From Psammoneis japonica (Eukaryota), in assembly GCA_008632985.1 (NCBI GenBank), contig QPGO01000190.1, positions 121,495-141,494 of the forward strand: a DNA stretch of 20,000 nt, written 5' to 3'. A program made the translations under genes and the position numbers. How positions within the stretch are numbered: the stretch's first letter is position 1; each line of letters opens with the position of its first letter. Of this stretch, positions 1-20,000 are shown in pieces. The notes beneath the pieces were generated by a model. It was not told where the DNA came from. It worked only from the letters and a program-made list of their open reading frames with translations, and did not search any database.

Positions 1-1
1 G

Positions 2-124: not shown

Positions 125-140
125 GTATCAACGCCTCTCA

Positions 141-2295: not shown

Positions 2296-2508
2296 CGAAC
2301 GAAACACCCACGCCCCCCGCACACACCAACCGCTAACGTCTCCGTTGACACTGTGTCTCTTTTGCATGATGATGCAAAGCGACGATCATGCCGCTCTCGG
2401 CGGTCTCCAATGTTTCATCCACAATCTCGTGGAGACGGCACGTCCACACGACTGGGCACTTCTGAATGTTGGGGAGCGTTGCATTATCGGCATGTCGCAA
2501 ACGTCCGT

Positions 2509-2692
2509 CTGTCGGCGTTTGTCGGCTCTTGTTGGCGTTTGTCGGCTCTTGTTGGCATTTGTCATACGTTGTCGGGGTTTGTCGGGGCTTGTCGGGGTTT
2601 GTCGGGGTTTGTCGGATGCGACAAAATTTGTCGCACGTCCGACAAAATTTGTCGCACGTCTGACAAAATTTGTCGCATCCGGCAAAATTTGT
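2509..2692 (+). repeat. 10-bp (TGTCGGGGTT-like) tandem units followed by three to four ~21-bp units containing the near-palindrome CGACAAAATTTGTCG
   Basis: tgtcggcgtttgtcggctcttgttggcgtttgtcgg...; then cgacaaaatttgtcgcacgtc repeated at 2619-2692. Mirror copies of the motif occur at 2097-2170. Confidence 0.85.
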
Positions 2693-4886
2693 CATTGACA
2701 AGTGCAGTCTTCGCCGAAAGTTAAATTCATCACATGGCACTGCAGTTGACACAACGTTTGTGTTTGGGACACGCCATTGCCAATTAAATGATGTTTTTGT
2801 CTCATTTATCGCCAACGATTGAAATTTGTCTCAAAGGGCGTTTTTCACGACAAATCGTCCAATTCATTTAAGGGAATGTCGCAATTGGCGACAAAATGCC
2901 GTGTGTCCCTGGTCTGGAAGCATGGAACAAGCCATGCCTCACTTCAATGTCATGCGTGGACCCTGCACGGCATCGAGCACATTTGCTGAAAGAAAACACA
3001 GCCCAAACGCACCACTGTGACTGGCTCTCTTTAGAGACGGGCTTTTTTGGCCAGCTCTGGTCATCCTGAATGACTCGTTGTCCACCCTTTCAGGTTTTGT
3101 CATCAAAATGAATCTCTGGAATGTGTCCCACAAAGTTGGCCACTGCAAAATCATCGTCAGACAGATCTGATGCGGACCCACCCTCTGTTTTCAATGCAGT
3201 GCAAAAATGAAGATTTAGGTGCAACAGCGGACCACAGTGGGGTGAGGCAGAGGACACCACAGGGCAACCACAGGATTCTGCTGTGCAGAGATTTGATTTT
3301 TCGAAACTTCCCTCTGACACACCGTGCGTGCATGATGTTGGGGCATGCTGCAAACACACACCATCCCACATGCCATGCCACCAGCAAATCAAAATTGACA
3401 AGACAAACCCCCATGCTGCACTGCACAAACATTTGCATTTGCCAGCAGTGGCAACAATTTCCATCTGCAATCTTGCAACAGAGAGTGGCGCAAATGCACC
3501 TTCTCAGCACTTCTTGTTTCTCTGCTGAAATTCTGTTTAAAAAAGTTTTGCTGGGTGCAAAGTCAAAAATGAGCAGACAAGTCTTCACTTGCTGCCACAG
3601 TGTGCTCGCTGTGATTCTTGGCATGGTGTGTGGAACAATGGCTCGACTGACAACTGGATGAAAATTTCAGTTCAGCAGAACCACCGCACAGTCAAAAGAA
3701 AAGAGTCATGCCACACCACCACAGCAAAAGAGCTGCTGACAAAAAGACAAACCCAAATTAAATGCTGCAAAGCAACAGTGTGCATTGAAAAAGCACATCA
3801 TCCAAAACAAGCCTCTTTCAATTCACGACGTGACACCACGCAATGTCCCAACATGTCACAGACACAAACATGATGTGCGGTCTCTGGCCACAGTGCCAGA
3901 TTCTTGGCTGCCAGCCACTCTGGCTCCTGGCAGTCTCAGCACCACTCCAAGGCCCACCATGCCAATGGCTGGCTTGCCTTCAATTTCTTGTCCCTTTGGT
4001 GGGCTGGACACTTTCTTGATGGTTGGTCAAAACATGAGAGGTGTGGATGAGTCCAAATGAGCAACTGTCCAGCGCGGCTCATTGCCAAAGACCAACACAA
4101 AGCTCAAGCCACCTCCTCACCTTGAGCACCAAGGCCAAGCCACCCCTTCCAGGAGGCTGACCACAACGGGGTTCAGTTTGCCATCGTTGGACCGATCCTT
4201 GACATTGAACAAATCCATGAAACCCCTGCAGACTCCAAGGAAAGCCAGCGGATGGTTGTGCCAACAAGCACCAGAGCAAGGCAAGCATGTGGCCAGTTCA
4301 CCCAATGTGCTCATCGAGACACAAGTTGCCAAGACACAGATGCTGCATCCCACATGGTGCACAATGCTCAAAAATCAAATTGGCAAAGGCAGCAATGTGC
4401 GGCTGAGACTCATGAGCACATTGGCACTGGAGCAACCGTTGCTGAGGGCCAACCACAAGCTGGTGGGGGGGCAAAGGTCAACAGCCCCAAACTCATCACA
4501 ATGGCATCAAAGTGTCCAAGGTTCTGCACAAAACTTGGGAGCGTTGAAATGTGCCATGAGCACCATGGAAAGCATGTGCCAAGAAGTGAAAAGGAGCTGG
4601 GGCCCAAGATGCTCAAGGCACCCTTGGCTCCAAAGGGTGGTTGCAATTTGGTCGCGACATCGCCCAAGCACACTTGCCACTCTTAGATGTGCTGTGATGG
4701 GTTGGCGGGAAATTGTTGTTGGCGCTGGCCGCATCATCATCGTGTTGAATGTGCTTGGGTGCAACCGCCATTTCGAGCATTGTTCTGCGTGCTGTTTTGC
4801 ACGTACAAATGTGCGAAAAATTTGGACGCACCGAGACCCACGGCCCGCAAGCGCACGGCATATCCAGTTGAATCTGCTGTATCACC

Positions 4887-5864
4887 ATGTCGAAACCACC
4901 GGCTGCCAAGCGCCTTTGCGTAGACTTCTCAAGCACTGTGTTTGAGCTTGTCATTGGTAGTGGATTCTTTCCATGGTATGAGTTGAATGATGAGTGCCGC
5001 GTCGTTTCAAAAGGTTGGAACGAGGCCATTTCGACGGCGTTGAACAACGCGCCATTCTTTAAACAACTTGTTGAGCACATTGGCAAGCTCAATTGCTGCA
5101 ACAAGTGTGAATGGTGCAACCAGATTTATAGTGAAAAAAGTCGTCATGTATTTTGTATGACAAATGCTGGCAGTGATGAAAGGGCTCTAAAGGAGAAGGA
5201 TCCGCGCTGCCAAGATTCGTTCGATTCGCTTTCTAGCTTTGAGAAGGCGAGGCGATTGTATCTATTCCATGCAAAATGCATTTCCAACCTCCTGTCATTC
5301 TATGGAGAAGAGCTCTCTATAGAGGAATCGCTCTGTGCCCGCTATTGCATTCCTCATGATTGGTTCTGTGGCATGACCAGTCTTCGCGATTACAATCCAA
5401 ATGCCCATTGGCTCTTCATGGGCCTCGTCGAGCTACACATTGCCAAGATCGACTTGGCGCAAGGAACTTACTGGTATAAGCCTGCCTTTGCTGGTAGAGA
5501 ACGTAGTGCTGGGCGATTCACTGGGTCTTCCTATTATGGTTGGACTCACGACATTGTATTAGAAAAGCTCAACGGCGCTCCCCACGAAGCGGATGAGCGC
5601 AGCTTTGATGCTTTTTATGTAACGCGACGATCAGGAGAAAGGGGACGCTGGTACAAATCACAATTCAATCATCTGGAGGATATTATCAAGGGAATGCTCA
5701 ACGAGCGTGATTTGGTGGCCGATCAGTTGCTTGGAGAACAGTTGGCGAACCGCATTGACATTATGCACAAGGCACGCGATTCCATGATTCCTCGTCTCCC
5801 CGACATTTTCCCACTCGAGTGGATGCCAGTCTTTGAAGACGACTATATGTACGCGATTCCATGA
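4887..5864 (+). CDS. Hypothetical protein, 325 aa, with a possible divergent N-terminal F-box-like motif
   Basis: Intact ATG-to-TGA ORF with normal composition (14 Tyr). N-terminal PPAAKR (NLS-like) and VFELVIGSGFFPWYELNDECRVVSKGWNE resemble the F-box '..VSK.W' signature. The domain call is weak. Confidence 0.7.
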   Translation: MSKPPAAKRLCVDFSSTVFELVIGSGFFPWYELNDECRVVSKGWNEAISTALNNAPFFKQLVEHIGKLNCCNKCEWCNQIYSEKSRHVFCMTNAGSDERALKEKDPRCQDSFDSLSSFEKARRLYLFHAKCISNLLSFYGEELSIEESLCARYCIPHDWFCGMTSLRDYNPNAHWLFMGLVELHIAKIDLAQGTYWYKPAFAGRERSAGRFTGSSYYGWTHDIVLEKLNGAPHEADERSFDAFYVTRRSGERGRWYKSQFNHLEDIIKGMLNERDLVADQLLGEQLANRIDIMHKARDSMIPRLPDIFPLEWMPVFEDDYMYAIP

Positions 5865-6076
5865 TTCCTCGACTGATGAGAGTTTCAGTGGATCATTATT
5901 TGTTTGTGAATAAGTGTCCGGGATGAATAGCGACGCGAATAATGATGCAAAGGGATTGTGCATATCACCGGCAATTTTCTGCATCGATCTAAATTGTACT
6001 ACCGTAGCTTTCGCTGTATGGGGTCGATTCGACGATAGGCTATGTAGCGATACTTGCATTGGCTTACTAGTTTAGA

Positions 6077-7769
6077 TTGTTTATATATACATATATTGAT
6101 TCTATGCTGCTGCGTCGGAAAGGAGTTGAAATGTACCCTAAACATGCTGCGGATGTTGGAACAAAACTTCCGTTGGGCACCAAATGCAATCGCTCTGTCC
6201 ACCAGCAGCGACTGCACCAGACAGCATTCCAGCGGTTGGGACGCTATGTGAGAGCTAGCGAGAGCGATTGACGGATCAGGAGCAGTGCATCTGCCAAGCT
6301 CTTTACGCTTCATGTCTCTCACGTATCGGTCAAGACGAGCTGGCAGTTGTTTCTTATGATGCGTCTCTTTCACTCAAGCAATTTCTTACCGAAGAAACAC
6401 TTCAGGAAGTTCTTCAAGGAAAGGCGAAAACTCTTCAAAGACTGATGCGCTACGAGGAAGCCAGGAATGTCTTCTTCAGAGGTCAAATAACGGGATACTA
6501 TACGTGTGCGCTGCAGCAACTTGCTCCCTTCGGTTGGGTGCTACAGAATGGGCAATCCGAGTTTTGAGCATGTTTTGTGAGGACATAAAGAATAGCAGTA
6601 GCTTTCGTGCATAGGTAATACTCGGAGCCTTATTGGCCGTTGTCGATCACGAGAATGTCGACCATGAACGAATTGGTAGACAACTTGCACAGGGAGCCGT
6701 AGCTGAGCCACTCTTCTCCTGGATACATGCAGTCTGGCAGCTAAAACACGGTGACAAGCTAGCCCTTCTTAACACGTCCGGCGAACGGCAACATAACGTA
6801 GATTGCCACTTGCTTCTGGCAAAGGCCAACCAATCACCATTTGATTTTCCTTCCTTGATCCAATTGGATAATGAGGTCATCCTTCATCGGCTGTTAGCGA
6901 GCAAAGATGACGGTTCGGATGGAAATTTCTGGCCCACTGGATTCGTGCTCCCGGAGGAGTCTGCGAAACTACGGGCGCATATTGCTGATTCTCAAGCCAT
7001 GTCATCTTTGCATAATCTCAAGACGTGGATTCTGAAGAAACCATGTGGATACGGATCTCATGGCAACAAGTTGGTTACAAGTACTGAAGCAATCCAGACC
7101 TCTGAGAAAATGCTGCCGGGTCAAAGATGCCTTTGCCAACTAATGGTAGAGCCGCCTTTGCTTATTGAGGGCAGGAAGTTTTCATTGCGGATTTACGTTG
7201 TATACTTTTCGGAGTCCGCTTCAGGTGACGACCAATGTGGATATCTTTTTGTCTCGGACCAGGGTTTAGTTAAACTTGCTTCTGTCCCCTACGAAATTGG
7301 ACAAGATAGAAATGACGATCGAGCTCACATGACGAATTCTGGTCGAGAAGAGGCCATGACCAAGCAAGACTTAGTGTATCTCCGAGGGAATTTTGACAAA
7401 TGAGGCTTCCATTACAGCAAATTCTGGGTTTGCACATACAAATCGATACCATCAGTCATAGGAAGTTACGTCAAGAATATAATGGTAGAGGGAACGGTAT
7501 CCTATCGGTCTCGACTTGCCACTTTTGGAACCCCCAAAATCTTGGGCTTTGACTACGTGCTCGACGCTAACGCCACACCGTTTTTGATCGAGGTCAATCG
7601 CTTTCTCAGCCGGGAAGCAAGGGACAGAGGTGAAAAGTCTGTCAAGCGTAGAGTGGTTTTGGATGCATGGTTCTGTGCTGCCGACATACTTGGTGTGGAT
7701 CCATGGGATTGTTTAGGGATACAGCATCAACTGCTGAGTATAGACACCTTTCATCACGGCGCCAGTTAG
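6077..7769 (+). pseudogene. TPR plus tubulin-tyrosine-ligase (TTL/TTLL, ATP-grasp) family gene, disrupted
   Basis: TTL motifs WILKKPCGYGSHG, CQLMVEPPLLIEGRKFSLRIYVV, GLVKLAS, HMTNS and ILGFDYVLD..PFLIEVN are present. An in-frame TGA at 7401-7403 separates same-frame ORFs 6633..7403 and 7482..7769. Upstream fragments in other frames include TPR-like KAKTLQRLMRYEEARNVF. The 5' boundary is uncertain. Confidence 0.82.
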
Positions 7770-8593
7770 TCACCAAACAAACCGCAGTCTTCAACGTGCT
7801 TCCCGCTTTCAAACCCTTTTGCCGATGTTAGATTTACCAACCTCCTGTCCGTATCCTCCGCCTTCACTAGCGTGCCTTCTTCGTGAGAAGTGTGGAAGAA
7901 TTGTCGGAGTATCTCATCCAGTTCATCGTATTCATTAAGTGCCGTCGTCGTGTTAGCCTCACACGCTAGGTGAGCGTAGTCGAGGAAAGTGACACTACGT
8001 TCACCGCGATCTTCTTGCGCTATCGCATAGTGAAACATATCTCTCTCCGCCTTGCCAACACAATAAATTGACACGGTTGGAAACGGCTCTATGGCACAGA
8101 AGGAAGACTTGTTGACAACGACAAAACGTGGAGGCGATGAAGGGGGGTGCCCGATGGCTTCTTGATCTATGATCTCCTGAACAAAACGAACTCTAAGCCA
8201 CAAACTGGATGTCACATTGAGATCAATAGCCTCCCAAATCTCATACAGACTTAAGTTTCAATTAGGAGCCCAGAAGCCCAAGCGTACCTGCGTTGCTTAT
8301 TAGTATGGCACGATCAAATCAACTGAATGAAGAAGATTCCTCTTCCAGAATTTATCCAGCTCGGAAAGGTCAAATGCAATTTCCCCAAATTCGAGTGTGT
8401 GATGAGCTTGTGTTTCGTTTGGAAGGAGTCTTTCAGTCTCAAACAAATCGTCCCGCGACCGCACTACGAGAGACACTCGAATGATGGATATTTCATCAGA
8501 AGCATTTTTAACAAAAGAAGCTGCGATGGCACGTCCAATCCCTCTTGAGGTCCCAGTAGCAATAACTAGCATGGATGACACAATGCGAATCAC
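7766..8593 (-). pseudogene. Sepiapterin-reductase-like short-chain dehydrogenase pseudogene, copy 2
   Basis: VIATGTSRGIGRAIA (Rossmann TGxxxGxG), frameshift near 8300 into LISNAGTLG followed by a stop, then NVTSSLWL, VVNKSSFCAIEPF, IYCVGKAERDMF (YxxxK) and FESGKHVED. These match the sepiapterin reductase pattern (YCAGKAARDM; FxSGxHVD). Confidence 0.85.
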
Positions 8594-8806
8594 AACGCCA
8601 CCATTTCTTCACAACGAGATCAACTCCAATGTGTTTTGCGACGGACGCGTTGTGACGGCCTCTTCGGTCTAACTTGCCAAGCTGGAAGAGCGAGAGAAGC
8701 GCGCTATCCTTATAAAATTACTCGACTGAAATCAATGACTCACCATAATGTACGGTGGTAGCAACATCGAAAAAAGGTTAACTTCTTCAGGCTTCAGAAG
8801 ACGAAT

Positions 8807-9981
8807 CTAGTACCCATCCGGCCACTGGACAGGAAGCATCTTGTCATCGAAACACTTCCCTTCATCTAACCCGGTACCCCAGGTAACTCGCTTGGCAAGA
8901 ATTTGGACGCCAGCTTGTTCAGCTTTACGAAGATACTTGCAAAGGAAGGACAAGCTTCGTGGTTCGGTCGAAAGGATTCGGCATCGCCTCTAATCACAAC
9001 AAATAACACGGTGGTTTTGTATCGTTCACCATTTTCCCCGCGCAGTGTGCCTTTAGCAATGCGAGTGAGCTCTTGGACGTGGTGTATGGCACGAGCCGAG
9101 ACAACCTTTTCGCCATCTGGTCCTTTTTGATTTGATTTACCCCAAGGGAATATAGCTGTTCTGCTGTACGGCTGCTGATCGCTTGCAAAGATGCACTTTA
9201 GCTTTTCAGGATTTGGTAGAGCTGAGGAAGCATAGTCGGTGTCTACCACGGTTTTCACTTCAACAATACGCTTCGTGCCATCCAACTGAGTCACTAAGAA
9301 ATCACTGCGCATATTTGCTCCGCATGGATTTCGGATTTGTGTTTGAATGCTGGACATGCGAGGCAAGTCAGGAATCAGATTGTTGCGCAGCCAGGTCTCG
9401 GCAATGCGTTCTCCAAGAGACGGGTGTGCGCCAACCCATGTGGGAGGATAAAGCGTCGGTTCGAGGTGGGATTCGTCAACGAGCAGTAATTGAGTAATGA
9501 ACTCACACTTTGGCGTTCCGTACTTGGGAGAGACTGCGTCCGCACCAATTTTTACGCCATTTCGACCACGAGCAGGCTTAAGCAAGAGCGAGGCGCCGGG
9601 AACACACTTACCACCCATGTCAAGATTTGGTACATGCGCGATGGCTTCACGTTGTTCAGCTTCGAGCCATACGTCAGCAACATATGGGCTCCTGTTGCGC
9701 TTGGAAGGCCGAGCTGTCAATTTCGCCTCAACAAGCTCCTCATCTACGGCAAGGGAGAACAGAGGATCTCGACACCCGTCGCAATCCGTTGAAATGATCG
9801 GTTCAGGAGACGCCGCCCCTCCTTTTTTCATCGTCCCCCCCAATTGAGAAGTCCTCGCCTTTTTGGCTGCGACTTTTCTTGTCACACTCGAGCGGCGCGT
9901 AGAAACCATGACAGCGAAAGATCGACCTAAATCTAGTTCAGCGAAGAGAGCAGACGGAAGGAACAAGAGCTTGACTCTCAT
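8807..9981 (-). pseudogene. sfsA: SfsA-like (sugar fermentation stimulation protein, PD-(D/E)XK nuclease fold) gene with a 1-bp frameshift near 8937 (real lesion or sequence error)
   Basis: Motifs RPSKRNRSPYVADV, AHVPN, RSDFLV, VEVKTV, AIFP, VSARAIHHVQEL and LFVVIRGDAESFRPN. After CPSFA the SfsA-like tail continues in another frame (YLRKAEQAGVQILAKRVTWG...QWPDGY*) to a stop at 8807. The start may be at 9981 or 9909. Confidence 0.85.
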
Positions 9982-10246
9982 GCGGTTCAAGAAATGGAGG
10001 ATCGTATGAAGTCTTCGTAGTAGCAACACAGAGTCTTCTCATGCGGTACCTGACAGTCATGGGCGAGAAGTTGGGAATAAAGAATCATCAGCCGACCGCT
10101 GACGGTTGCGTGAAAGTACCGTATGCGAGATGAGATAGAGAGTAGACTCCTCTAATCTGTCGTCCATCAGGTTCTGAGTTAGTTCTTGAATTTTCCCGAC
10201 CCCGCCTCCTCCCCCCAAACTCCCCACGCTACCGCGCAAAACCTCG

Positions 10247-10462
10247 CAGCCAAGACTCTAAGCCAAGCAAGGAGAGGACCTCCTTGACTGGACCGAGAGT
10301 CACCGCGCGAATGTAGGAGCGAAATGGGTTGAAGGACGGACGACGGACGAGACGAGCGGAAACGAGGCCAGCCCAAGGGATCCCCTCATTGTCTGGCAGG
10401 ATGGGAGACACCATGGCACTGTCGGAGGCGTCTCCTGGGAGATGCCAACGATGAAAATCGAA
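10247..10462 (+). repeat. Split direct repeat A1 (216 bp)
   Basis: Identical to 18203..18418 except T10314 versus C18270 (gaatgTAgg / gaatgCAgg). Confidence 0.97.
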
Positions 10463-11385
10463 TGGCTTTTCTCCCTCTCCTGTCAGTCAATGCTGAAAAT
10501 CCCTTGCGTGGTCTGCTTGCGCAGCCGGGAGTGTCTCGTGCATTGGTGCCATTTGCCACCACGCCATTTCGGCGCTATCCTGTGGATGCACCTCCCAATT
10601 TTTTTCGCTGTTAATGCTGACTACGGTCACGCCATCTTGGCGCCATGTCATGTGGGCATTGCTCCAAATCCCGACTGGGTCCGCTTGTCAGCGGGGGCGC
10701 TTCGGCGGCCGAGGATTGCCTCGCACTCTGGCCCATTTGCCACACCTTTCAACGGTGCTTTCTTACAAGGAGTGCATCCTCATATAGACGGTCTCAGCAC
10801 CATTAAAGTCCCGCATGGGCAAATGGCAGTGTGGCTTTTTCATTCCGCCTGCCACTTTCTCCTGAACGCCCAGGTTGGGCCTTTTTCTTTTGCGGCTCTG
10901 CGGTCCATGGTCATCGCCTTCCCCCTCGGCGTGTCCAATTTTTTCCCTCTCCTGGGGACACAGCATGTTTAGGCTTGCACACCAGCACACCACAGCATCG
11001 GAATTGCCAGTTCTGTCTGGTCGATGTCAACTGCACACACACATGTGCATTCCCGCGAGGGTTTGGTCAAAACGAAATTTGCCACCACGTTTCGGGGTTT
11101 TTCGTCTTCTCGCGAAATGCGCGCCATCACGATGATGAATGGTGATGGAAACTGACCCGTCACATGGGGATGAAACTTGGATTTCTTTCTTGTCTCCATT
11201 CATTGGACAAGCACAGGAATCGCGAAGGGTTGCGTTCGCGGAACTGACACGGTGTCAGTCAACGCTTGTCCTTCTCGAGCAATTTCCACACGCTGGTGTC
11301 CTTCACTTTCCGGTGAGATTGCTCTCACTTTTCCTTTTTTGCGATCGGACGAGCCTTTAGTTTTCTGCTGCCCTGTTGTTCCACC

Positions 11386-13663
11386 ATGAACCAAGCCCAC
11401 GCTGCTGCCATCAACCGCGGCAAGCTCTCCGCTGCAAAGCGGTGCTCCGCCGCTTTGCCCTCCTCCACGGGTGCGATCGAGTCTGTCTCAACTGCTGTCC
11501 ACCGTGACACCCAGAAGGAGCTACGAGACCATGTCTTCGCGACCTCTGACCTTTTCTACGCGGTCCACAATCGCAAGATTGCGGTTGTGGCGAAACCTCG
11601 CCCCAGGCAGCACGCCGATGGGAATCTAAAGTGGATCGGGAGCCTCTCGGATGCGATCGGCGAGGTCATCCCGATGTCTGGTAGTTGGACTCGTTTCCAA
11701 GGCCATGCAACCACTCTAGTCCCCCAGGGCACTGTGGACACTTGTCACCTGCCCAAGTGCGAACTCAGCCCTGACGAGATTGACGGTCCCGTTGGCAACG
11801 ACGGCAACAACGTGCCGGCGTCGATGGGTCGTCTCCATTTTGGGAATCCTTCCGGACCGGCAGAGCGTCCCTCCATCGTCGCGCTCCCGATGTTCCTGCC
11901 AATCCCAACGGGCGTCACCCTTCCTGCTGACTTCGACCCAGCAGATCCCCCGGCATCCCTTGCCACTGACTTTCCGCTTGGAGCGGTTTGGGCTCAGGGC
12001 ATGTCCTGGTTGCTTCAGCACAACGCTTCTGTCTCTGTCACGGAAGGCGGCCCCATGTTTGAGCAGAATGGCTTTGCAATTGTCGATGAGTTTGCAGGCC
12101 TCGAGATCTGTGATCTCGACAACAATGACGCACAGATGCTCCAACCTCTGACGGATTGGTGTGCACCAGTCAAGACCACGATGGACGCCTTTGCAGATGA
12201 GACCTGGAGGCAACTCGGTGGAGAAGAGCCCGCGCAGATGCAAGCTCCCGCCGCCCCAGCCCAAGGTGCCAATGGACAGGTTCCGAACTGTGCCATCCAT
12301 GTCCCACGCCAGGACTCGAAGAAAGAGTCAGACCAGAAGCTGAGGGCGCGCGACATTGGTCACCGCTGGTCACTCTGTGCGTTCCGAGCGACTGCTGGTG
12401 CAGGTCCGGAGGACCCGCCTGTGATCATCGTGGGCGAGCTTACGGACCAAGCGGCTGAGATTCTTCAGGACACGTCGGCTGCCAATGCAAACCGTGACCT
12501 CGCGGATCTTGTTAAGATGGCTGTTGTTGCATCAGCCCGTGGTGACAGCAGTCTAGACGCTGGGGTCGACTGCAAGTGCACCATCGTCAACAAGGCCTGC
12601 ACGGACTGTTTCCACGGCTTTAATGTGGTTGCGGAGCCCCCGCAGCATGGCCAGGCTTCGCACCGCACGAAGCTGTCTGTCCTTCCTTTTCTTCCCCCGA
12701 AGACTGCATCATCTTCATTTGCTGGTCTCGAGGACGAAGGGAGGGTGCTCCATCGGGTGCTTGCCAATGGCTCCGACTGCAAGATCCCCGATGACGTGAA
12801 GGCAAGCAACCTTTGTGTCCAAGGAAGGATGGACACCGCCAGCAATCTGTGGTCAGTGCTTTGCAACTTTTGCTGTGTCCTTGGATGCTGGATCAAGGAC
12901 TTCGACAATGCGGAGCTGTGGAAGTCCCTGGATGCGCACGCAAAGGTTCTTTGGTCGCACCCGGGCCGCACGTGGCTCAAGAATCTCGAGGACCCCAAAC
13001 CAGTCGTCGCCAGCATCCCAGACAATTTCCAGACTATCATCAAAGTCCACTTTGAGATCGGAGACTCTCCATTGTGCCGTCAGGCGGTAGAAACCGAGCG
13101 TCCACTGAGCCATCAGATGGCAAAGGACGCTCGCACTCTGGTCGTCCCTCATTGCGGACCTCAAAACCGCGATCACGCGGGGCAAGCCTCTGGCCTTTGC
13201 GGAGGCATCTACGTTGGCCCTTGTCCCCCTGGGCAACTCTGTGTTCCTCCCTGCTAGCAGAACGAAGGATGATGCGACCAAGTCTGGTCAACCTCCGAAT
13301 GAGAAGCTGCGCACGGGGGAAACAGATGACAAAACCGCCAAGCTCTGCAAGGCGATGGGCATGCTCAATTTTTCGGGCACGAAGCGGCTCCCGACCAGCC
13401 CCGTTTTCTACAAGAAGCGAGGATCAGATCAGGAGGAACGTTTCTGCATGTGCTTTTGCACTGAGGGGCACTTCTGCAAATTCCCCAACTGCCCGAAGCC
13501 CCACCCATCGTCACTCTCCAAGATTCCGAGTGAAAAGAGGGATGCCTTTTGCCAATTTGTCAAAGACACCCCGGGACTCGATTTTGTTCCTGGCAAGGGC
13601 CCAGACGGTGCGTCCCAATCAGGTTCGAATGTTCCTAGTCTGTGCACTGCACCCTGTTGCTAA
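11386..13663 (+). pseudogene. gag: Gag-like ORF1 of the YR retrotransposon, frameshifted at ~13145, with a C-terminal CCCH-like zinc finger
   Basis: First long ORF of the element (11386..13257). Protein-like sequence continues in the frame of ORF 13214..13663 (LIADLKTAITRGKPLAF...RFCMCFCTEGHFCKFPNCPKPHP). The assignment rests on position and the Cys/His finger. Confidence 0.75.
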
Positions 13664-13744
13664 TGCAGTGTTGTCCAAAACTGTTCTGTTTTTCACTCTC
13701 GATTAGTCTACGTTATCCCTGACAGGTCCGTTCGTCTCATCGCA

Positions 13745-16606
13745 ATGGATGTCGACGACGACAGCGATCAGGAGTGCGAGGTGATCGATGCAGAGCAAGA
13801 CGAGACCGGAATGAGTGTCGCTGAAGCCATCCCAGCTGTTGATGCTGCACTTGCCACGTCGGTGAAGGAGCCGCACCCGAGCCTGTGCCGAGGTGCGGTC
13901 ACGCCGCAGCCTCCCGTCAACGAGAATGAGCTGATCGAGCCATTCCCCACCTTCTCCATGGTCCACAAGAAGAAAGGGACCGATTTGATTCCTACAATCA
14001 ATGACGGCTTCAATGAGAAGGCACGTGAGCACTTTGCCAATGCGGAACCATCGCCGGGCATGCGTGCTAAACTGGACCAAAAATTCGGCAAGGAAAACTT
14101 GAATCAATGTTTCTTGTCGGAAGCGTGTTTGCGTCATGTGTTGCCACCGCTGTTGAAATCTGGGTGCATGTCGCCACCGGTTGATTGCATGAGTGACTCA
14201 TCTGCCCAAATCGTCTTTGGGGGTGATTGGGAGAACTTCGGAGCGGCCATCCCGGAAGCAGCCGAGCCCATGAGCCTGGTCCGGGAATGTGGCGACATCG
14301 ACTTTAATCCTCTCCAAGGCTGCCCCGAGGGATGGCAAAAAGAGACAACGGTCAGTGTGGATAGAGCTGCGATGACAACTGCCGCGTTGTTGCATTTTGA
14401 TGGTGACCCAGCAAACCTCGTTCGCTGGGTTGGCGGACCGCACGTCGGTGAACACAGACACACGCAGAAAATGCTCCGCTTTCTACAAGGTCGTGCACCC
14501 GACGAGACAACAGCACACGTTCGCCGCATCTTCCAAGACGGGGCGCCAGCGAAATGCAACACTGCTTTCACTGAAGCCAACTTCCAAGCAGCTCTCAAGT
14601 GTGGAAACCACAAGACCGTCGACGCTGCACCTGACAAAACATTGGCGGCAGTCGCCAAGGACAATCGCAAGGGTTTCACGCCACTTTTTGACCAGCGTCT
14701 GGTGCCGCACTTGCTGAACTGCCATCTCACTCCTCAGGGGATGGTGGACCTTGACAAGAAATGCAAGAGTCCACGCCCCATCTTCGACAGCACGATGCGA
14801 GCGACTCCGGGTGGCATGGCAATCAACGATGCGTTGGACCTCAAGCACGAACCGCCGATCACGTTCCCATCAGCGGAAATGGACTTTGTGGTGTGGACAT
14901 GGAACATGAGAACATCCCACCCACACGAGGAGATCCACCTCGGCGATGATGATGTGAGTGGCGCTTTCCGCAACCTGAAGCACCACCCGAACCTCGTCGG
15001 GATGCATGCCAGCGTCCAGTGTGGACTGGGCGTCCTGCAGACGGGTTGTGCCTTTGGCGATGAGACCAACCCAAGCAACTGGGACGCTGTTGCCAATGCA
15101 AGACAATGCCTTGCTCAACAATTCTGGCTGGTGCCCAACGTGGTGGAACTCACCCAGCAGTGTCTCCCGACGACATCATTCGCCGAACCTCCTGCAGCTG
15201 AAGAGGCAGCGTCATTCTGTCCTGCGGAAGCAGACGCTGTCAATCCGGGCATGTTCCTAGATGGCTGCCGTTTGCCACCAACATGCAAGCACCACGTTGA
15301 CGATGACTTCTACGGAGACATGCATGACTTGATGAAAAGAACAGTCGCTGCGAGCGCCCTGGCCGTGTGCGTTTTGTTGGGCTTCCCACGCGATGAAACT
15401 CCGGATTTCCCAAGCAAAGAGAAACTGGACACACTGTGCTCACATCTCCGACGAGCCCTGGGAAGGCACTTCAACTCAAGAGCGCTGTCGGTGGGAATGC
15501 TCCCATGCAAACGAGAACAGTTCCTTGAAACTTTGCGAGAATGGCGCGACAAACAACGGCACACACTGTTGGATGCAGCAAACCCAAATGGTCAATGTGA
15601 ACTCCATGCGCGGTGTTGTCCATGGGCTCGGCCGAATTTTTTTGCACTCCAGAACTCCACGCGGCGGGCCATGGTCGTCCAATGCGCCATTGTCAAACAA
15701 ATCATGGAGCGACAAAATTTCAAATTAAATTTTGAAACTCAACTGCCGAGTCATCTCAGAAATGGGCCACCGAGCTTGCTCGCGCGCACACAGGCCCAGC
15801 TCCTCTGTCAGCTGAAGACCGAGATCCCGATGACATCCAATGTCATTGATGTGACAAAGGACACAGTGTCCTACATCGAATCAACGCCAGACCCATGGTC
15901 AGCACCGATTGGATGTGTCACACCGCAAGTGCCACATTGCCAGGCAATTGGAGACGCCAGCAACGCAGGCGGAGGAGCCCACTGCGCAGAACTCAAATTT
16001 TGGTTCGCATTTCTTTGGGGACCAAAAACAGCGAAAGGGCTCCGGCTGAGGAAGGCCTCCGACCCAGTGCATGTCCATGTCAACACAGCAGAGTTTGTTG
16101 TCATCACACTCAAGCTGGCAGCTGTGATTGTCCGCATGGAGACTGTGACCCGAGAACGGGCCCATGAGTTCTTCCGGAACGGCGTCGTCCCACTGCACCT
16201 GGTCGTCAGGAGTCGTTCAGACAACATGGTGTCGGTCAACCGGTCCAACAAAGCAACGTCAAAGTCGCCACAGGGGCAACGATTTGTCTGGGTCTTCTGC
16301 AAATTGCTCCACCGTGCTCGTGCCAACTTCAACGGAGATCACATCTTTGGCGACGAAAATTTTGTTGCCGACGATGTCTCACGACCTTCTGTTTTTGCCT
16401 TGATCTCGCATCGCACCCATTCTGAACAGCTGTTTCGGAAGTGTCCCTTTCTGAAGACCTGGGACTGTTTCCAGCCGAGTCAAGAGCTGCTGCAGCTCCT
16501 CTCCTCACAGCTGTCTGCCAAGCACAGAATGGCACCCCAGATCCCAAGCGACTTGGGACAGCTCGTTCCCGCAGAATCCATTTCCTCTGCTTTTGTAAGA
16601 GTGTGA
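13745..16606 (+). CDS. pol: Reverse transcriptase plus RNase H (open frame, heavily mutated)
   Basis: RT motifs PRPIFD, DDDVSGAFR, GCAFGDETNPSNW and HHVDDD. DIRS-type RNase H motifs GDASNAGGGA, HVNTAEF, RSDN and HIFGDENFVADDVSR. Confidence 0.93.
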   Translation: MDVDDDSDQECEVIDAEQDETGMSVAEAIPAVDAALATSVKEPHPSLCRGAVTPQPPVNENELIEPFPTFSMVHKKKGTDLIPTINDGFNEKAREHFANAEPSPGMRAKLDQKFGKENLNQCFLSEACLRHVLPPLLKSGCMSPPVDCMSDSSAQIVFGGDWENFGAAIPEAAEPMSLVRECGDIDFNPLQGCPEGWQKETTVSVDRAAMTTAALLHFDGDPANLVRWVGGPHVGEHRHTQKMLRFLQGRAPDETTAHVRRIFQDGAPAKCNTAFTEANFQAALKCGNHKTVDAAPDKTLAAVAKDNRKGFTPLFDQRLVPHLLNCHLTPQGMVDLDKKCKSPRPIFDSTMRATPGGMAINDALDLKHEPPITFPSAEMDFVVWTWNMRTSHPHEEIHLGDDDVSGAFRNLKHHPNLVGMHASVQCGLGVLQTGCAFGDETNPSNWDAVANARQCLAQQFWLVPNVVELTQQCLPTTSFAEPPAAEEAASFCPAEADAVNPGMFLDGCRLPPTCKHHVDDDFYGDMHDLMKRTVAASALAVCVLLGFPRDETPDFPSKEKLDTLCSHLRRALGRHFNSRALSVGMLPCKREQFLETLREWRDKQRHTLLDAANPNGQCELHARCCPWARPNFFALQNSTRRAMVVQCAIVKQIMERQNFKLNFETQLPSHLRNGPPSLLARTQAQLLCQLKTEIPMTSNVIDVTKDTVSYIESTPDPWSAPIGCVTPQVPHCQAIGDASNAGGGAHCAELKFWFAFLWGPKTAKGLRLRKASDPVHVHVNTAEFVVITLKLAAVIVRMETVTRERAHEFFRNGVVPLHLVVRSRSDNMVSVNRSNKATSKSPQGQRFVWVFCKLLHRARANFNGDHIFGDENFVADDVSRPSVFALISHRTHSEQLFRKCPFLKTWDCFQPSQELLQLLSSQLSAKHRMAPQIPSDLGQLVPAESISSAFVRV

Positions 16607-17682
16607 AGTGGCATCTGGGAGATCCGGAAATGACTGTGATTGGCAAGGACCCAAAGTGCTGCCAACTGGTGCCAGCCATGTGTGCTTTGCATCTAGCTAG
16701 CGGCTCCACTCTCTGCTGCAAGAACATCTCCTCAGGTGCCATCAAGGAACATGTCCATGACATGTCAACGTTCGTGTCTCCACTTGGTTCCACGTGTCGG
16801 GACGTCCGCAAAGACAACAGCGTGGACACCAAGATGGGGTGGATCCTCAGGGGAGCATTCGATGAACTCCAACGGTGCGAGAAAGTCCCGGAAAGGCGCG
16901 AGTCACACACGTTGCTCATGCAGCAACGAGCGACGTCGACAGCAGACACTGTGCGAGAAACCGACCCGGATGCGATCGAAGTGGTCCTCGCTGACTGGTT
17001 TGAGATTGGGCCAATGGCCGGCTTGCGAAGTGTTGAATGGGCCCAATCCAATGAACACTCAGAACTGGAGAATCCAAGGCTGAACATCTTTGAGGAGACC
17101 TGCGCGTTCTGCCTCGACGACGTCCGATGCGAGACAAAAGACAAGCGCCGACACACCGGGGCGGATTGTCTTGTCCCCAAGCAAGAGGATGTCGAAAGCA
17201 TGCGTGTCATGTTCCGAGCTCAGAAGAACATGCACAATGGCGAGGAATGCCAGTTTGCTGTGAACCTTGATGGCAAGCACGACTTGGCAAAGCCGATGCT
17301 TCGCGTTGTCCGACGTTTCGTGCGGGTCCGTGGCAAGGACGACAAGATCTGCCCCCTTGCTCTCTACTTTGATCCAGAGAAGGGCAAGCACCGTCTCGTC
17401 ACGTCCAAGAAAATCGAGACCCACATGCGCCGAATTGCCGCAGAAGTGCACCACCTCGACCCGGTGAAAGACAAGAAAGCTCTTGGCAAATGGTCGGCTC
17501 ACTCCCTCCGTGTTGGAGCCTGTAATGTCCTTCACGAGATGAACTTTAGTGGCGAGCAGATTAAATGGCTGCTCAGATGGCGATCTGATGCCTTTGTGGC
17601 TTGTCTCCGCAACTGCCTGGGTCTTTCCCAGGCCCATTGTCGAGCTCTCGACAAGGCGGCACCCATGCCGTTCTTCGATTAA
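16441..17682 (+). CDS. Tyrosine recombinase (open frame; catalytic Tyr position is Cys), overlapping the RT/RH 3' end
   Basis: GLRSVEW (catalytic R), AQKN (K), HSLRVGA (HxxR) and LLRWRSDAFVACLR (W, plus the expected nucleophile Tyr seen as TGT at 17602-17604). The true start is uncertain. Confidence 0.92.
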   Translation: MSLSEDLGLFPAESRAAAAPLLTAVCQAQNGTPDPKRLGTARSRRIHFLCFCKSVKWHLGDPEMTVIGKDPKCCQLVPAMCALHLASGSTLCCKNISSGAIKEHVHDMSTFVSPLGSTCRDVRKDNSVDTKMGWILRGAFDELQRCEKVPERRESHTLLMQQRATSTADTVRETDPDAIEVVLADWFEIGPMAGLRSVEWAQSNEHSELENPRLNIFEETCAFCLDDVRCETKDKRRHTGADCLVPKQEDVESMRVMFRAQKNMHNGEECQFAVNLDGKHDLAKPMLRVVRRFVRVRGKDDKICPLALYFDPEKGKHRLVTSKKIETHMRRIAAEVHHLDPVKDKKALGKWSAHSLRVGACNVLHEMNFSGEQIKWLLRWRSDAFVACLRNCLGLSQAHCRALDKAAPMPFFD

Positions 17683-17950
17683 TTCCTTTGTGCGGATTCA
17701 ACACATCCCCTTTCCATGTGTCCTCTCTGCGTGACATAAAATCGCACACTGTTGTCCCATTGCATCTGAAATTTCAATTTTGAAATTCGAAATTTGATCC
17801 TGGCAACGTGATCGCACACATGTGTTCAGGAGGAACATTTGTTCCTCCATCATGTCTGAAGAAAATAGATTTTTTTTTCCGGCTGGCTCTGCCTCCGATG
17901 ACATGGGCGCGTTCGCAATGCTTCCAGCATTCCGCGTCGGCAGCATGGTG

Positions 17951-18201
17951 TGCACACAGTGAAAAAGGGAACCAATTGCTTGGCACTGGCGATTCCAAGC
18001 CTGGCCCCACATCCTAATTGCTTCACCTGCTGGCGACTGTTTTCATCGTGGCAACAACATGAGTCTACACACGGACATGAGCACTGCGCATGTCACAGAT
18101 GACACCAATGTGTTGCATCGACAGATGAGAGACGCTTCCACTGTGCCATGTCATCAGAGTGCAGACAGCCGAGGCGGAGGCAGGGAATCCATGGGATTCT
18201 C
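17951..18201 (+). repeat. Split direct repeat B1 (~251 bp)
   Basis: Gap-free alignment to 18438..18688 with about 23 differences, all transitions. Confidence 0.95.
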
Positions 18202-18202
18202 A

Positions 18203-18418
18203 CAGCCAAGACTCTAAGCCAAGCAAGGAGAGGACCTCCTTGACTGGACCGAGAGTCACCGCGCGAATGCAGGAGCGAAATGGGTTGAAGGACGGACGAC
18301 GGACGAGACGAGCGGAAACGAGGCCAGCCCAAGGGATCCCCTCATTGTCTGGCAGGATGGGAGACACCATGGCACTGTCGGAGGCGTCTCCTGGGAGATG
18401 CCAACGATGAAAATCGAA
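18203..18418 (+). repeat. Split direct repeat A2
   Basis: 215/216 identical to 10247..10462. Confidence 0.97.
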
Positions 18419-18437
18419 AACCCACCACTCCCTCCCC

Positions 18438-18688
18438 TGTGCACAGTGAAAAAGGGAACCAATTGCTTGGCACTGGCGATTCCAAGCCCAGTCCCATGTC
18501 CCAATTGCTTCACCTGCTAGCGACTGTTTTCATCGTGGCAACAACATGAGTCTACACACGGATGTGAGTGCTGCGCATGTTGTAGACGACACCAATGTGT
18601 TGCATCGACAGACAAGAGACGCTTCCACTGTGCCATGTCATCGGAGTGCAGACAGCCGAGGCGGAGGCAGGGAATCCGTGGGGTTCCC
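18438..18688 (+). repeat. Split direct repeat B2
   Basis: Gap-free copy of 17951..18201 (offset 487). Confidence 0.95.
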
Positions 18689-19063
18689 CCTGTGGTGCAG
18701 TGGGGGAGCTGTGTGTGTGTGCGTGTGGTTGTGTGCACACGGCTTCGCCGTGCGTTGAGTTTTAATGTTAATGTCCACACGCACGTGCATGTTCCACAAG
18801 CAAAAATTCCTGTTCCACAGCTCCCCTAAAACTCTAACCACCAAAAACCGAGGGGTTGGAAGCGCACTTTCGGGAGCTCTTTTTCTCCGCACAAAAAACA
18901 CGCGTTTCGTCGACTCGACCATGATGATGCCTCGTGGTTCTTCCCCATCGCCTTCCCAGGACGCCGATCCCACTGACACCGTTGCCAATGACACTGATGC
19001 AACAGGTGATGTCATTGTTCCGGTTCTCGTGGGTGTGATGCGCACAAAATAAGATGCTGCAAA

Positions 19064-19575
19064 CTCACACTGTTGTTTGCATGCTCCACCGCCTCCCACA
19101 GATGCTGTCACGAATTCCAACACCGCACCTGCGTTTCGGGCCCCCAGCATGCCCGATGCTGTCACTCCCACCCTTGCTGCTGCAGGCGCTGTTGATGCTG
19201 TCACTGTGTTTTGCCAATGACGTCCACAATGAAATGTCAACATCTCACACTTCTTTCATTCTCGCCCCACCGCCTCCCACAGACACCATCACGAATTCCA
19301 ACACCGTGCCTGCGTTTCGGCCCCCTGGCATGCCCGACACTGTCACTCCTGCCCTCACTGCCGCAGGTGCTGTTGATGCTGTTGTTGTCTTTTTGCCAAT
19401 GACGTCCACAACGAAATGCTTGTAACTCACACTTCTTTCATTCTCGCCCCACCGCCTCCCACAGATGCTGTCACGAACTCCAATGCCGCACCTGCGTTTC
19501 GGCCCCCTGGCATGCCCGACACTGTTGGTCCCACCCTTGCTGCTGCAGTTGCTGTTGATGCTGTCATTGTTTTTG
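19064..19575 (+). repeat. Three diverged tandem units of ~180-182 bp in a TpA-depleted block
   Basis: Units start at ctcacac (19064, 19244, 19426), and each contains ccaccgcctcccacaga...cctgcgtttcgg...gcatgcccga...gctgttgatgctgt. Confidence 0.9.
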
Positions 19576-20000
19576 CTTTGGAAGGAACACAATGGATGAC
19601 GGATGACGGCAGACCAGGAAACCCACGCAACCACGGCCTGCTGATGGACGACACATCAATGGACATGAGTGGTGCCTCTTGGTCAGCTCTCGAGTGCAGT
19701 CCAATCTTTAGAACACACAGACACATTGTGCAGCTCTCTGTAAATTAGAAACCTGACAACAATTGGATGGCAGGCATGCTTTCACAGTTTTTTAGTTTCA
19801 AGTTGGAGAGGTCAGCGAACTGGCATTTGTTTGCAGGCGACTTGGCAAGGTTTCAAATGGTGCATGTGACTTGGACACTGCTCTATTTTCCAGGACTGGG
19901 TCATTGTGCACAACTCCATAAGAGGCCACTCTCGCCGTTTGAACTCTGCATGTGATGCACAACACACTGTTTTTGTGTGTTGCCAAAATGGAGGCAGGCA

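Follow-up and report, generated by a model that had tools for sequence, protein, structure and literature searches.

The retrotransposon and its surroundings

The window, as we call the whole stretch of 20,000 nucleotides from Psammoneis japonica that was analysed, contains a retrotransposon, host genes and two further blocks that are poor in the dinucleotide TpA (Table 1). All homologues of the host DNA that carry names came from diatoms. The element is a Ngaro/PAT-like retrotransposon of the DIRS order, with which it has in common a reverse transcriptase/RNase H, a tyrosine recombinase and split direct repeats (A1...B1-A2-B2).

Table 1. Position of genes, repeats and TpA-depleted blocks in the window.
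Feature	Position	Strand	Remarks
Host segmental duplicate of 7646-8467	1-886		86% identical; control for duplication alone
Left TpA-depleted block, mobile or repetitive DNA	885-4800		TA O/E 0.11
Spared host DNA	4887-10242		internal control; TA O/E 0.61
Host ORF, 325 aa	4887-5864	+	in spared stretch
TTL-family ORF	6633-7403	+	Pfam TTL, 2e-15
SfsA ORF	8866-10029	-	Pfam SfsA, 3.4e-11
Hypermutated Ngaro/PAT-like tyrosine-recombinase retrotransposon	10243-18686	+	layout A1-ORF1-ORF2-ORF3-B1-A2-B2; split direct repeats
Repeat A1	10243-10462	+	99% match to A2
ORF1, presumed Gag-like	11317-13257	+	646 codons, stop to stop
ORF2, reverse transcriptase/RNase H, inactivated by missense changes	13664-16606	+	assigned by structure and homologues
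ORF3, tyrosine recombinase, catalytic Tyr replaced by Cys (codon TGC)	16426-17682	+	815 homologues
Repeat B1	17955-18199	+	92% match to B2
Repeat A2	18199-18418	+	partner of A1
Repeat B2	18442-18686	+	partner of B1
Further TpA-depleted repeat	18687-20000		summed depth ~6700-7660, very high

An AlphaFold2 model of ORF2 (pLDDT 80.8) was submitted to Foldseek. All listed matches at E <= 0.001 (23 counted) were reverse transcriptases, the best being a foamy-virus PR-RT (4.5e-8), and 119 sequence homologues were found. No Pfam match was obtained for ORF2 even at E <= 10, and in this respect the reverse transcriptase clade of the element differs from other Ngaro/PAT-like elements. ORF1 had no Pfam match. 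PF00589 matched 20 of the 40 members of the ORF3 alignment, in which the HxxR box and the catalytic Tyr column align; H359 and R362 are retained in the window. A DDE integrase was not found among the element ORFs, as judged by the absence of a Pfam match. Summed contig word depth, which is not a copy number, was 186-717 over the element compared to ~52-168 over the host genes. The left block is heterogeneous: positions 1335-3335 have a summed depth of 1159-4368 and contain microsatellites and an inverted repeat, and positions 3336-4669 reach only ~60-72, which is host-like. No Pfam match was obtained for the ORFs of this block. The right-hand repeat includes a tandem array of a 182-nt unit (19028-19576).

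TpA is lost and TpG and CpA are gained in mobile DNA

Dinucleotides were counted across the window. TpA observed/expected ratios (O/E) were 0.11 in 885-4800 (27 TA), 0.05 in its part 3001-4800 (5 TA), 0.13 in 10500-17700 (45 TA) and 0.16 in 17701-20000 (20 TA), compared to 0.61 (220 TA; CpG 0.98) in the host stretch 4887-10246. The scarcity of TA reported in the initial annotation for the element, the right-hand block and 885-4800 is thus confirmed, and its spot counts (4 TA in 3181-4800, 24 in 5881-6120) are exact. TpG and CpA were both raised, to 1.43 and 1.32 in the element (host, 1.12 and 1.15), 1.66 and 1.65 in 885-4800, and 1.94 and 1.70 in 3001-4800; the signal therefore sits on both strands. 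Relative to the host odds ratios, the element is short of 169 TA and 69 CG and carries 209 additional TG and CA, so that deficit and excess roughly cancel. The GC content is 0.52-0.61 in the element and 0.44-0.53 in host DNA.

The depletion ends at most ~50-100 bp from the element borders. Host TpAs are dense up to position 10230; within the element, which begins at 10243, the TA at 10314 has no successor before 10576. The left block extends from ~840-900 to ~4800-4860 and adjoins the start codon of the host ORF at 4887.

CpG decay by 5-methylcytosine deamination was considered as a source of TpG and CpA and rejected, because the CpG deficit of the element is smaller than its TG and CA excess. 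CpG is low in 3001-4800 (0.32) and 19501-20000 (0.36), and in the former region 5-methylcytosine deamination does contribute additionally.

Tyrosine codons are removed from the element proteins

The three element ORFs together encode 6 Tyr in 2044 residues, close to the initial count of about 5 in ~2100 codons; the host ORF at 4887 has 14 in 325. ORF1 contains 0.31% Tyr and 4.02% Cys. In ORF2, Tyr amounts to 0.31% compared to 3.1% (range 1.8-4.4) in its homologues, and Cys to 3.57% compared to 1.5% (42 aligned of the 119). At 17 conserved Tyr columns of ORF2, the window retains Tyr twice and has Cys at six, His at four and other residues at five. The motifs singled out earlier follow this pattern: EEIHLGDDD has His where 35 of 42 homologues have Tyr, the first His of NLKHHP replaces a Tyr found in 39 of 42, and the Cys of AFVACLR stands where all 39 homologues have Tyr. 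The catalytic column 393 of ORF3, Tyr in 39/39 homologues, is Cys in the window.

Missense inactivation of mobile DNA, as proposed earlier, is supported by this exchange of conserved and catalytic Tyr for Cys or His. Judged from its codons, the retrotransposon is dead despite its long ORFs, Tyr codons including catalytic ones having been removed. That these ORFs are long is due solely to the parallel loss of TAA and TAG.

TA is the ancestral state

The split repeats allow two copies within one insertion to be compared. B1 and B2 show 24 aligned differences. The repeat proper holds 20 of these, and 15 of the 20 are TpA-derived, comprising six adjacent CA/TG doublets (12 differences) and three sites with TA in one repeat and CA or TG in the other. 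Opposite strands were thus hit at the same sites in B1 and B2. On the assumption that the element inserted with identical copies of B, TpA sites mutated, by a rough estimate, ~100- to 1000-fold faster than others. A1 and A2 differ at two in-repeat positions (10246, CG vs CA; 10314, TA vs CA). TG and CA number 26-28 in the 220 nt of A and 51-55 in the 245 nt of B. The higher identity of the A pair (99% vs 92%) was counted against the explanation; it can be reconciled only with an A repeat that already had few TAs at the outset.

Other copies were compared using sequencing run X1 (X2 and X3 are from the same sample), which may be the source of the assembly and is then not independent of it. The run yielded 1854 transitions and 572 transversions in total. 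Among the 40 best supported of 2459 difference rows, selected by support and not at random, 9 of the 12 that were C>T fell on a CpA in the window, and 5 of the 7 that were G>A on a TpG; four doublets had CA in the window and TG in other copies or the reverse, and other copies still carry TA at such sites.

Across 79 related loci the TpA ratio (rho) had a median of 0.57 (range 0.21-0.78), and the window was lowest (0.09). The family itself is thus not poor in TA. Rho correlated with TG+CA content across relatives at -0.78, a value that is confounded since rho also tracks CpG loss. Polarity on individual branches was assigned by three-taxon parsimony. Locus L059 kept 19 of 54 ancestral TpAs, compared to 19 of 19 in its sister L035, and L063 kept 5 of 27. 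L059 had 13 A>G changes away from TpA and 32 G>A changes; A>G is not above G>A there, which argues against a general AT to GC drive. L059 and L063 derive from unrelated metagenome assemblies and show the same pattern.

Homologues, split repeats, other copies and related loci (L059, L063) all show changes running from TA to TG or CA, as had been proposed. The change is directional, with TA ancestral and TG/CA derived; it postdates the element repeats and varies between copies. The earlier claim that T:A pairs became C:G at TpA on both strands of mobile DNA, after the element arose, is supported.

These data also bear on two explanations that need no hypermutation. The DNA might be natively TA-poor, either because it keeps the composition of a horizontal donor or because UA- or stop-rich RNA was selected against, or might have been shaped by CpG decay or GC-biased gene conversion. 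TpA is indeed mildly low everywhere, in the host stretch as in the family median, and CpG is low in the two regions named above. We regard such an undirected origin as highly improbable: conserved and catalytic Tyr are destroyed, sister copies retain their TpAs, repeats within a single insertion differ by CA/TG doublets, A>G is not in excess off TpA in L059, and element CpG (O/E 0.86) is too high for CpG decay to give the TG and CA excess. A sequencing or assembly artefact is practically negligible. We found no point in its favour, although the read comparison rests on one run that is possibly the assembly's own source; the pattern is limited to mobile DNA with edges at the element boundaries, it follows a codon-level logic, and it recurs in the unrelated metagenome assemblies.

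Flanking bases and strands

The 91 TpAs surviving in the window contain zero, one or two T-A-Y half-sites in 49, 40 and 2 cases, whereas 33 relatives with few mutations gave 344, 1426 and 817 (purine vs pyrimidine 3' of A, p = 1e-20). In L059, 29 of 54 Y half-sites and 4 of 54 R half-sites were hit (p = 2e-7); the corresponding values were 15/27 and 6/27 in L063, and 7/63 and 0/61 in L006. The hit rate at T-A-Y is thus several times that at T-A-R, and the strands of any one TpA act roughly independently. The rule is not universal: L051 had hits at 8 of 56 Y and 12 of 56 R half-sites, and three of the four Tyr to His changes in the window lie in a Y-TA context, which was counted against it.

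TpA is self-complementary, so that a change at the A of T-A-Y looks just like one at the T of the opposing R-T-A. The same targeting could hence operate with another chemistry, in which an enzyme modifies the thymine of R-T-A, for instance by oxidation or by hypermodification along the lines of 5hmU or base J, and reading or repair then yields C. In favour of this route, 5hmU in dinoflagellates takes the place of T with a preference for TpA and TpC. We nevertheless consider it unlikely. U or T 5' of the target A is a hallmark of TadA, ADAT and ADAR, and we know of no thymine hypermodification in diatoms or chlorarachniophytes. An ADAT2-like candidate enzyme has moreover been proposed for a comparable system in Bigelowiella natans, according to the main text of that report (Mettrop et al., bioRxiv 10.64898/2026.01.13.699255, 2026).

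Strand behaviour differs among relatives. All 20 TpA hits in L051 were on one strand and read T>C in the sense orientation (binomial p = 2e-6), and L006 is skewed 6 to 1 in the opposite direction. Both skews would suit editing during retrotransposition, on RNA or single-stranded cDNA as by APOBEC3 and fixed by integration rather than made on resident DNA; minus-strand cDNA deamination would yield the pattern of L051. As the sole explanation this is improbable. The strands of the window are about equally affected (TpG and CpA; Tyr to Cys 6, Tyr to His 4), B1 and B2 of one insertion show opposite-strand outcomes, and 885-4800 and 18687-20000 are equally depleted, with no reverse transcriptase recognised among the ORFs tested there. 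The DNA viruses hit in Bigelowiella are integrated residents of the genome and mutate in clonal growth, as described in the main text of the preprint (Mettrop et al., 2026). Editing at the retrotransposition stage may take place alongside chromosomal editing.

Targeting

Depleted DNA is mostly of high summed depth, yet the 0.9-kb host duplicate (86% identity) is spared. Its TA O/E is 0.67, and the 116 differences between the duplicates (60 transitions, 56 transversions, one in the CA/TG class) form an ordinary spectrum. Positions 3336-4669 are depleted at host-like depth and had no extra contigs at >=80% likeness, which is weak evidence as contigs cannot prove absence. Repeat targeting, part of the initial description, is not established by these data. 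The giant-virus target in Bigelowiella is single-copy, according to the same main text (Mettrop et al., 2026). Silenced or foreign chromatin, or else small RNAs, probably direct the process to its targets, rather than repetition itself.

A candidate DNA-editing defence in a diatom

We propose, with a probability of roughly 80%, that this diatom has a DNA-level hypermutation of TpA to TpG/CpA (T:A to C:G, on either strand) confined to mobile and repetitive DNA. The process would work within transposons and further DNA that is mobile or repetitive, end within ~50-100 bp of their edges and leave adjoining host genes untouched; ~80-95% of the TpAs in its targets have been erased. It may be the same process that was measured in Bigelowiella natans.

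The initial annotation knew of no described eukaryotic system with this signature, a statement now out of date. Mettrop et al. (2026) describe TpA hypermutation in Bigelowiella natans, where it strikes giant viruses and virophages integrated into the genome. According to the main text, two viral regions acquired 231 de novo mutations during mutation accumulation, of which 230 were A>G or T>C; these 230 were all at TpA, at ~6e-7 per site per generation, a rate >1000-fold over the rest of the genome. TpA-poor, CpA- and TpG-rich clusters over-represent reverse transcriptase and DDE domains, and DNA editing by amphioxus ADAT2 (A and C) and Trypanosoma ADAT2 (C) is cited. As far as the preprint describes it, the window shares T:A to C:G change at TpA, on both strands and only in foreign or mobile DNA. 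It differs in its host, a diatom (stramenopile) and not a chlorarachniophyte (rhizarian), in its targets (a retrotransposon and other repeats vs integrated viruses), and in near-saturated depletion (rho 0.05-0.16 vs 0.45 in the Bigelowiella viral region); the window is known from footprints, Bigelowiella from observed de novo mutations. The main text of the preprint mentions neither flank context nor diatoms, though its supplements may list flanks, and no report of TpA hypermutation in diatoms was found in the literature searched. New here are the diatom host, the near-saturated transposon targets, the T-A-Y preference and the copy-specific hits in environmental relatives, strand-exclusive in one case. 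If, as the published part suggests, the same DNA-editing defence exists in an unrelated alga, the mechanism may be widespread, and diatoms could serve for its study.

Two better-known systems offer comparison. Like ascomycete RIP, the process makes dinucleotide-specific transitions on both strands of mobile or repeated DNA and kills transposons. RIP, however, converts C to T mainly at CpA, creating TpA and AT-rich DNA, whereas TpA is destroyed and GC rises in the window; RIP was rejected on these grounds. RIP imposes missense and nonsense load, while the window gained no new stops and lost TAA and TAG instead. RIP also requires duplication and a premeiotic stage. With the editing that vertebrate APOBEC3 performs on retroviruses and LTR retrotransposons, the process shares deaminase-type, strand-coordinated change (cf. 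L051) and a flank preference. APOBEC3 acts on cytosine in minus-strand cDNA (plus-strand G>A), in contrast to A:T pairs on both strands of resident DNA here.

As to the chemistry, we see an even chance that adenine is converted enzymatically to hypoxanthine on transient single-stranded DNA by a deaminase of the TadA/ADAT type or another CDA fold. The I that TadA, ADAT, ADAR and TadA-derived base editors make from A is read as G, and these enzymes strongly prefer U/T on the 5' side of A. Their natural substrates are RNA, and editing of DNA is known mainly from engineered TadA. The native bacterial TadA site, U-A-C-G, is close to the T-A-Y rule, so that a bacterial-type TadA would be the better fit; natural eukaryotic ADAT2/3 substrates mostly have a purine after A34 and fit T-A-Y poorly. 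The evidence in the window consists entirely of footprints in sequence.

More tentatively, and with less than even odds, diatoms and chlorarachniophytes, perhaps much of SAR, could share a defence that amounts to a natural DNA adenine base editor. It would be T-A-Y-specific, guided by the silenced state of transposons and integrated viruses, and act on both strands of resident copies as well as on single strands that arise in replication or reverse transcription. The one-strand pattern of L051 would be linked to such intermediates.

TpA is depleted outside the host genes

Dinucleotide composition splits the window into three parts. Host DNA (4887-10246) has observed/expected (O/E) ratios of 0.61 for TpA, 1.12 for TpG, 1.15 for CpA and 0.98 for CpG. 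TpA falls to 0.11 (27 sites) in the left block (885-4800), where TpG and CpA reach 1.66 and 1.65. The interior of the retrotransposon (10500-17700) has values of 0.13 for TpA (45 sites), 1.43 for TpG, 1.32 for CpA and 0.86 for CpG, and the right end (17701-20000) has a TpA O/E of 0.16. Against an odds-ratio baseline taken from the host, the element is short of 169 TpA and 69 CpG and carries 209 TpG and CpA in excess. The TpA missing from the element turns up again as its two transition products, TpG and CpA. The edges are sharp: host TpAs continue to 10230, the element starts at 10243, and past 10314 the next TpA lies at 10576. The right end of the left block is found at about 4800-4860, directly before a host ATG at 4887. 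The depletion had been noticed in the initial annotation, whose spot counts were exact (4 TA in 3181-4800 and 24 in 5881-6120) and whose tyrosine counts also held (6 in 2044 element codons against 14 in a 325-aa host ORF).

The stop triplets were counted on both strands. From host to element, TAA dropped from 17.2 to 3.9 per kb and TAG from 20.0 to 5.3 per kb, while TGA was unchanged at 32-39 per kb. Because TAA and TAG are lost, many long ORFs appear on both strands; these are a by-product and no proof of intact genes. Between 10500 and 20000 this yields ORFs of 150-300 codons in antisense and in off-frames. For annotation this means that TpA-erased DNA offers long spurious ORFs on both strands, which gene finders would call as false proteins, and that proteins encoded in such DNA are missed by profile searches.

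The element is a tyrosine-recombinase retrotransposon

The feature to the right of the host genes is a single element with split direct repeats in the order A1-ORFs-B1-A2-B2. ORF2 (13664-16606) has at least 119 homologues in public metagenomes (P0001-P0119), with 30-46% identity. Up to E <= 10, no Pfam family was matched by the element ORFs or by four intact homologues of ORF2, and sequence searches of the PDB with an ORF2 profile and with ORF3 gave matches at chance level only. The fold predicted for ORF2 was confident (pLDDT 80.8), and every Foldseek match listed at E <= 0.001 (23 counted) was a reverse transcriptase (RT), including those of foamy virus, Ty3, CaMV and MMLV. ORF3 has 815 homologues; a Phage_integrase family match was obtained for 20 of 40 alignment members, and the H-x-x-R box is aligned in ORF3. 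The identity of ORF2 therefore comes from the fold search and that of ORF3 from Pfam applied to its homologues. The element is a Ngaro/PAT-like tyrosine-recombinase retrotransposon of the order DIRS. The ORF2 clade has a clear RT/RNase H fold, yet no Pfam or PDB sequence-profile match; it consists of unmodelled polymerases of tyrosine-recombinase retroelements.

Features of the window (positions in nucleotides)
Feature	Position	Strand	Remarks
Host segmental duplication	1-886 / 7646-8467		~0.85 kb, 86% identity, ~7.6 kb spacing
Inverted repeat	1836-1918 and 2860-2942 (arms)		75% complementary
Tandem units, 20-23 nt, palindrome-containing	2107-2169, 2506-2693		within inverted repeat 1836-2942
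ACACG microsatellite	2176-2282		within inverted repeat 1836-2942
TTL-family host ORF	6633-7403		Pfam
SfsA host ORF	8866-10029	minus	Pfam
Retrotransposon	10243-18686		single element, split direct repeats
Repeats A1 = A2	10243-10462 = 18199-18418		99% identity
Repeats B1 = B2	17955-18199 = 18442-18686		92% identity
Tandem array, 182 nt	19028-19576		2.7-3 copies, 66-85% identical

TpA is converted to TpG and CpA

Five independent, concordant lines of sequence evidence support that the depletion is due to mutation and that its direction is TA to TG or CA. ORF2 homologues contain on average 3.1% tyrosine (1.8-4.4) and 1.5% cysteine, compared to 0.31% and 3.57% in the window copy. At the 17 conserved tyrosine columns of ORF2 (tyrosine in at least 60% of the homologues), the window encodes tyrosine twice, cysteine six times (TGY) and histidine four times (CAC). 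All three motifs that the initial annotation had offered as examples of replaced tyrosines lie on tyrosine columns. The catalytic tyrosine of the recombinase, present in 39 of 39 homologues, is a cysteine in the window. In the RT region, rho(TpA) of 79 related metagenome loci had a median of 0.57 (range 0.21-0.78), and the window value of 0.09 was the lowest.

Repeats B1 and B2 are expected to have been identical at the time the copy was made. They differ at 20 positions within the repeat, 12 of which form six adjacent doublets with CA in one repeat and TG in the other; at three further positions TA stands against CA or TG. A CA/TG doublet is the trace of a single ancestral TpA mutated on opposite strands in the two copies. 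In the host duplicate TpA is at a normal level, and the 116 differences between its two halves follow an ordinary substitution spectrum (60 transitions and 56 transversions, with 1 of the CA/TG doublet class). Other copies of the element were compared in a run that is possibly the assembly's own source and demonstrates differences between copies, not independent confirmation of the bases. Among the 40 best-supported of 2459 difference rows, C>T changes fell on a CpA of the window in 9 of 12 cases and G>A changes on a TpG of the window in 5 of 7, with four doublets of CA against TG; the run totals were 1854 transitions and 572 transversions.

Ancestral states on related branches were assigned by three-taxon parsimony. 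L078 was left out, its 224 transversions being a sign of bad alignment. On the branch of metagenome locus L059, 19 of 54 ancestral TpAs were kept, and 27 A>G and 16 T>C changes were found at TpA, whereas its sister L035 kept 19 of 19. The L063 branch kept 5 of 27. At the conserved tyrosine columns L063 has no tyrosine, nine cysteines and one histidine, and L059 has one, ten and five, respectively. Thus, the same process struck single copies in other environmental genomes and spared their sisters.

B1 and B2 contain at least 16 ancestral TpA sites, of which ~84% are mutated per copy. Across the A and B repeats (465 nt), only 2 differences are at sites derived from neither TpA nor CpG. Presuming that the repeats were identical at insertion, a rough estimate would put the TpA rate ~100- to 1000-fold higher.

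The A repeats are much less altered, with 26-28 TG and CA per 220 nt and 16-17 CpG; the B repeats have 51-55 TG and CA per 245 nt. Either the A repeats are natively TA-poor and CpG-rich, or they have been protected or homogenised.

Surviving sites reveal a flank rule

The depleted blocks retain 91 TpAs, mostly in the context Y-TA-R. Each TpA was read as two half-sites, one per strand, with a pyrimidine (T-A-Y) or a purine (T-A-R) 3' of the A. Survivors with 0, 1 and 2 T-A-Y half-sites numbered 49, 40 and 2 (n = 91), the corresponding counts being 344, 1426 and 817 in 33 little-mutated relatives and 44, 111 and 65 in host DNA. With both strands counted, survivors had 138 purines and 44 pyrimidines 3' of the A, compared to 2114 and 3067 in the relatives (p = 1e-20) and 199 and 241 in host DNA (p = 6e-12). 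Relative survival of the three classes was ~368 : 73 : 6, a ratio about twofold at most off the expectation for two strands mutated independently.

On the polarised branches the rule is directly visible. In L059, Y-TA-Y changed to TG 19 times and to CA 4 times, R-TA-Y was mutated in 9 of 9 cases and Y-TA-R had gone to TG or CA in 0 of 9 (TA still in 7). Mutated half-sites in this locus were 29/54 for Y vs. 4/54 for R (p = 2e-7); L063 had 15/27 vs. 6/27, and L006 7/63 vs. 0/61. Where the opportunity counts for Y and R are equal, this is a coincidence. In L051, which has a near-identical partner in L069, each of the 20 polarised TpA changes reads T>C on the sense strand, with no A>G (p = 2e-6), without a clear flank rule (Y 8/56 vs. 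R 12/56). Both strands are affected in the other hypermutated relatives. L051 could record a single-strand episode, e.g. on minus-strand cDNA. Strand-coordinated patches received no significant support from runs tests in L059 (p = 0.62), L063 (p = 0.13) or L028 (p = 0.10); the plus/minus imbalance in these loci arises because the sense strand has an excess of Y-TA-Y sites.

Comparison with known systems

The only TpA-directed hypermutation described so far is that of one chlorarachniophyte, Bigelowiella natans, in a 2026 bioRxiv preprint (10.64898/2026.01.13.699255). In mutation-accumulation lines, 231 of 302 nuclear point mutations lay in integrated giant-virus and virophage regions; 230 of these 231 were A->G or T->C, the GC-biased ones all at TpA, and the rate at TpA was ~6e-7 per site per generation (10.64898/2026.01.13.699255). 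The genome contains 124 TpA-depleted, CpA+TpG-enriched clusters, its TpA-poor genes are enriched in RT and DDE domains, and an ADAT2-like protein was proposed as candidate enzyme (10.64898/2026.01.13.699255). Diatoms, flanking context and trinucleotides do not occur in the main text, and the supplements, where Table S2 lists the mutations, may hold flank data (10.64898/2026.01.13.699255). Literature on diatoms, tyrosine-recombinase elements, genome defence and mutation spectra yielded nothing comparable beyond this preprint. The SPLASH paper was considered as a parallel and rejected, as "hypermutation" there refers to immunoglobulins.

The initial annotation had proposed a new defence system, a "reverse RIP". 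Its mutational reading is supported; its novelty is not, the phenomenon being already in print as a preprint (10.64898/2026.01.13.699255). What is new is that this only very recently described phenomenon occurs in another lineage and on another class of targets; the flank rule, the near-saturation and the copy-specific and strand-exclusive events in relatives are further additions. The Bigelowiella case concerns integrated viruses of a chlorarachniophyte; the window shows the same footprint, near saturation, on transposons of a diatom, and the process is therefore probably no one-lineage curiosity. Fungal RIP runs in the opposite direction, and duplication is not an established trigger here. 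APOBEC3 differs in both base and substrate.

Enzymes of the TadA, ADAT and ADAR types typically require a 5' T. The site of bacterial-type TadA is U-A-C-G, and ADAT2/3 substrates are purine-rich at position 35. T-A-Y is closer to the TadA site than to this purine-rich position. Both this rule and the approximate strand independence constrain the enzyme in a testable way, and would favour TadA-like over ADAT2/3-like specificity. The sequence alone would also fit a modification of the thymine of R-T-A instead of the adenine. A natural DNA adenine deaminase, if true, would be of interest to base-editing research. Some diatoms are transformable and gene-editable, and knockout of candidate deaminases is therefore feasible.

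Host DNA and the left block

Named homologues of the TTL and SfsA ORFs are from diatoms only (among them Nitzschia, Pseudo-nitzschia, Cylindrotheca, Seminavis, Amphora, Cyclotella and Conticribra), which makes the host a diatom and not Bigelowiella. The homology of the host duplicate stops at 886, the exact start of the left TpA-depleted block. ORFs tested in this block (885-4800) matched no protein family. Its segment 3001-4800 has the strongest depletion of the window (5 TpA; O/E 0.05), together with a CpG O/E of 0.32, and summed contig depth over 3336-4669 is not above the level of the host genes. This segment may be an old relic affected by CpG decay as well as TpA editing, or foreign DNA present in a single copy.

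In the one run that contains the window, contigs accumulate over 1335-3335 and over all positions beyond 10006, with a summed word depth, which is not a copy number, of 186 to ~7660, compared to ~52-168 on the host genes. That assembly thus contains many occurrences of similar sequence. Of two further runs, X2 covers part of the window and X3 had no contig on it. The repeat around the 182-nt tandem array has a summed depth of ~6700-7660 and is TpA-depleted too. The inverted repeat in the left block, with a summed depth of up to ~4368, looks like an abundant non-autonomous element.
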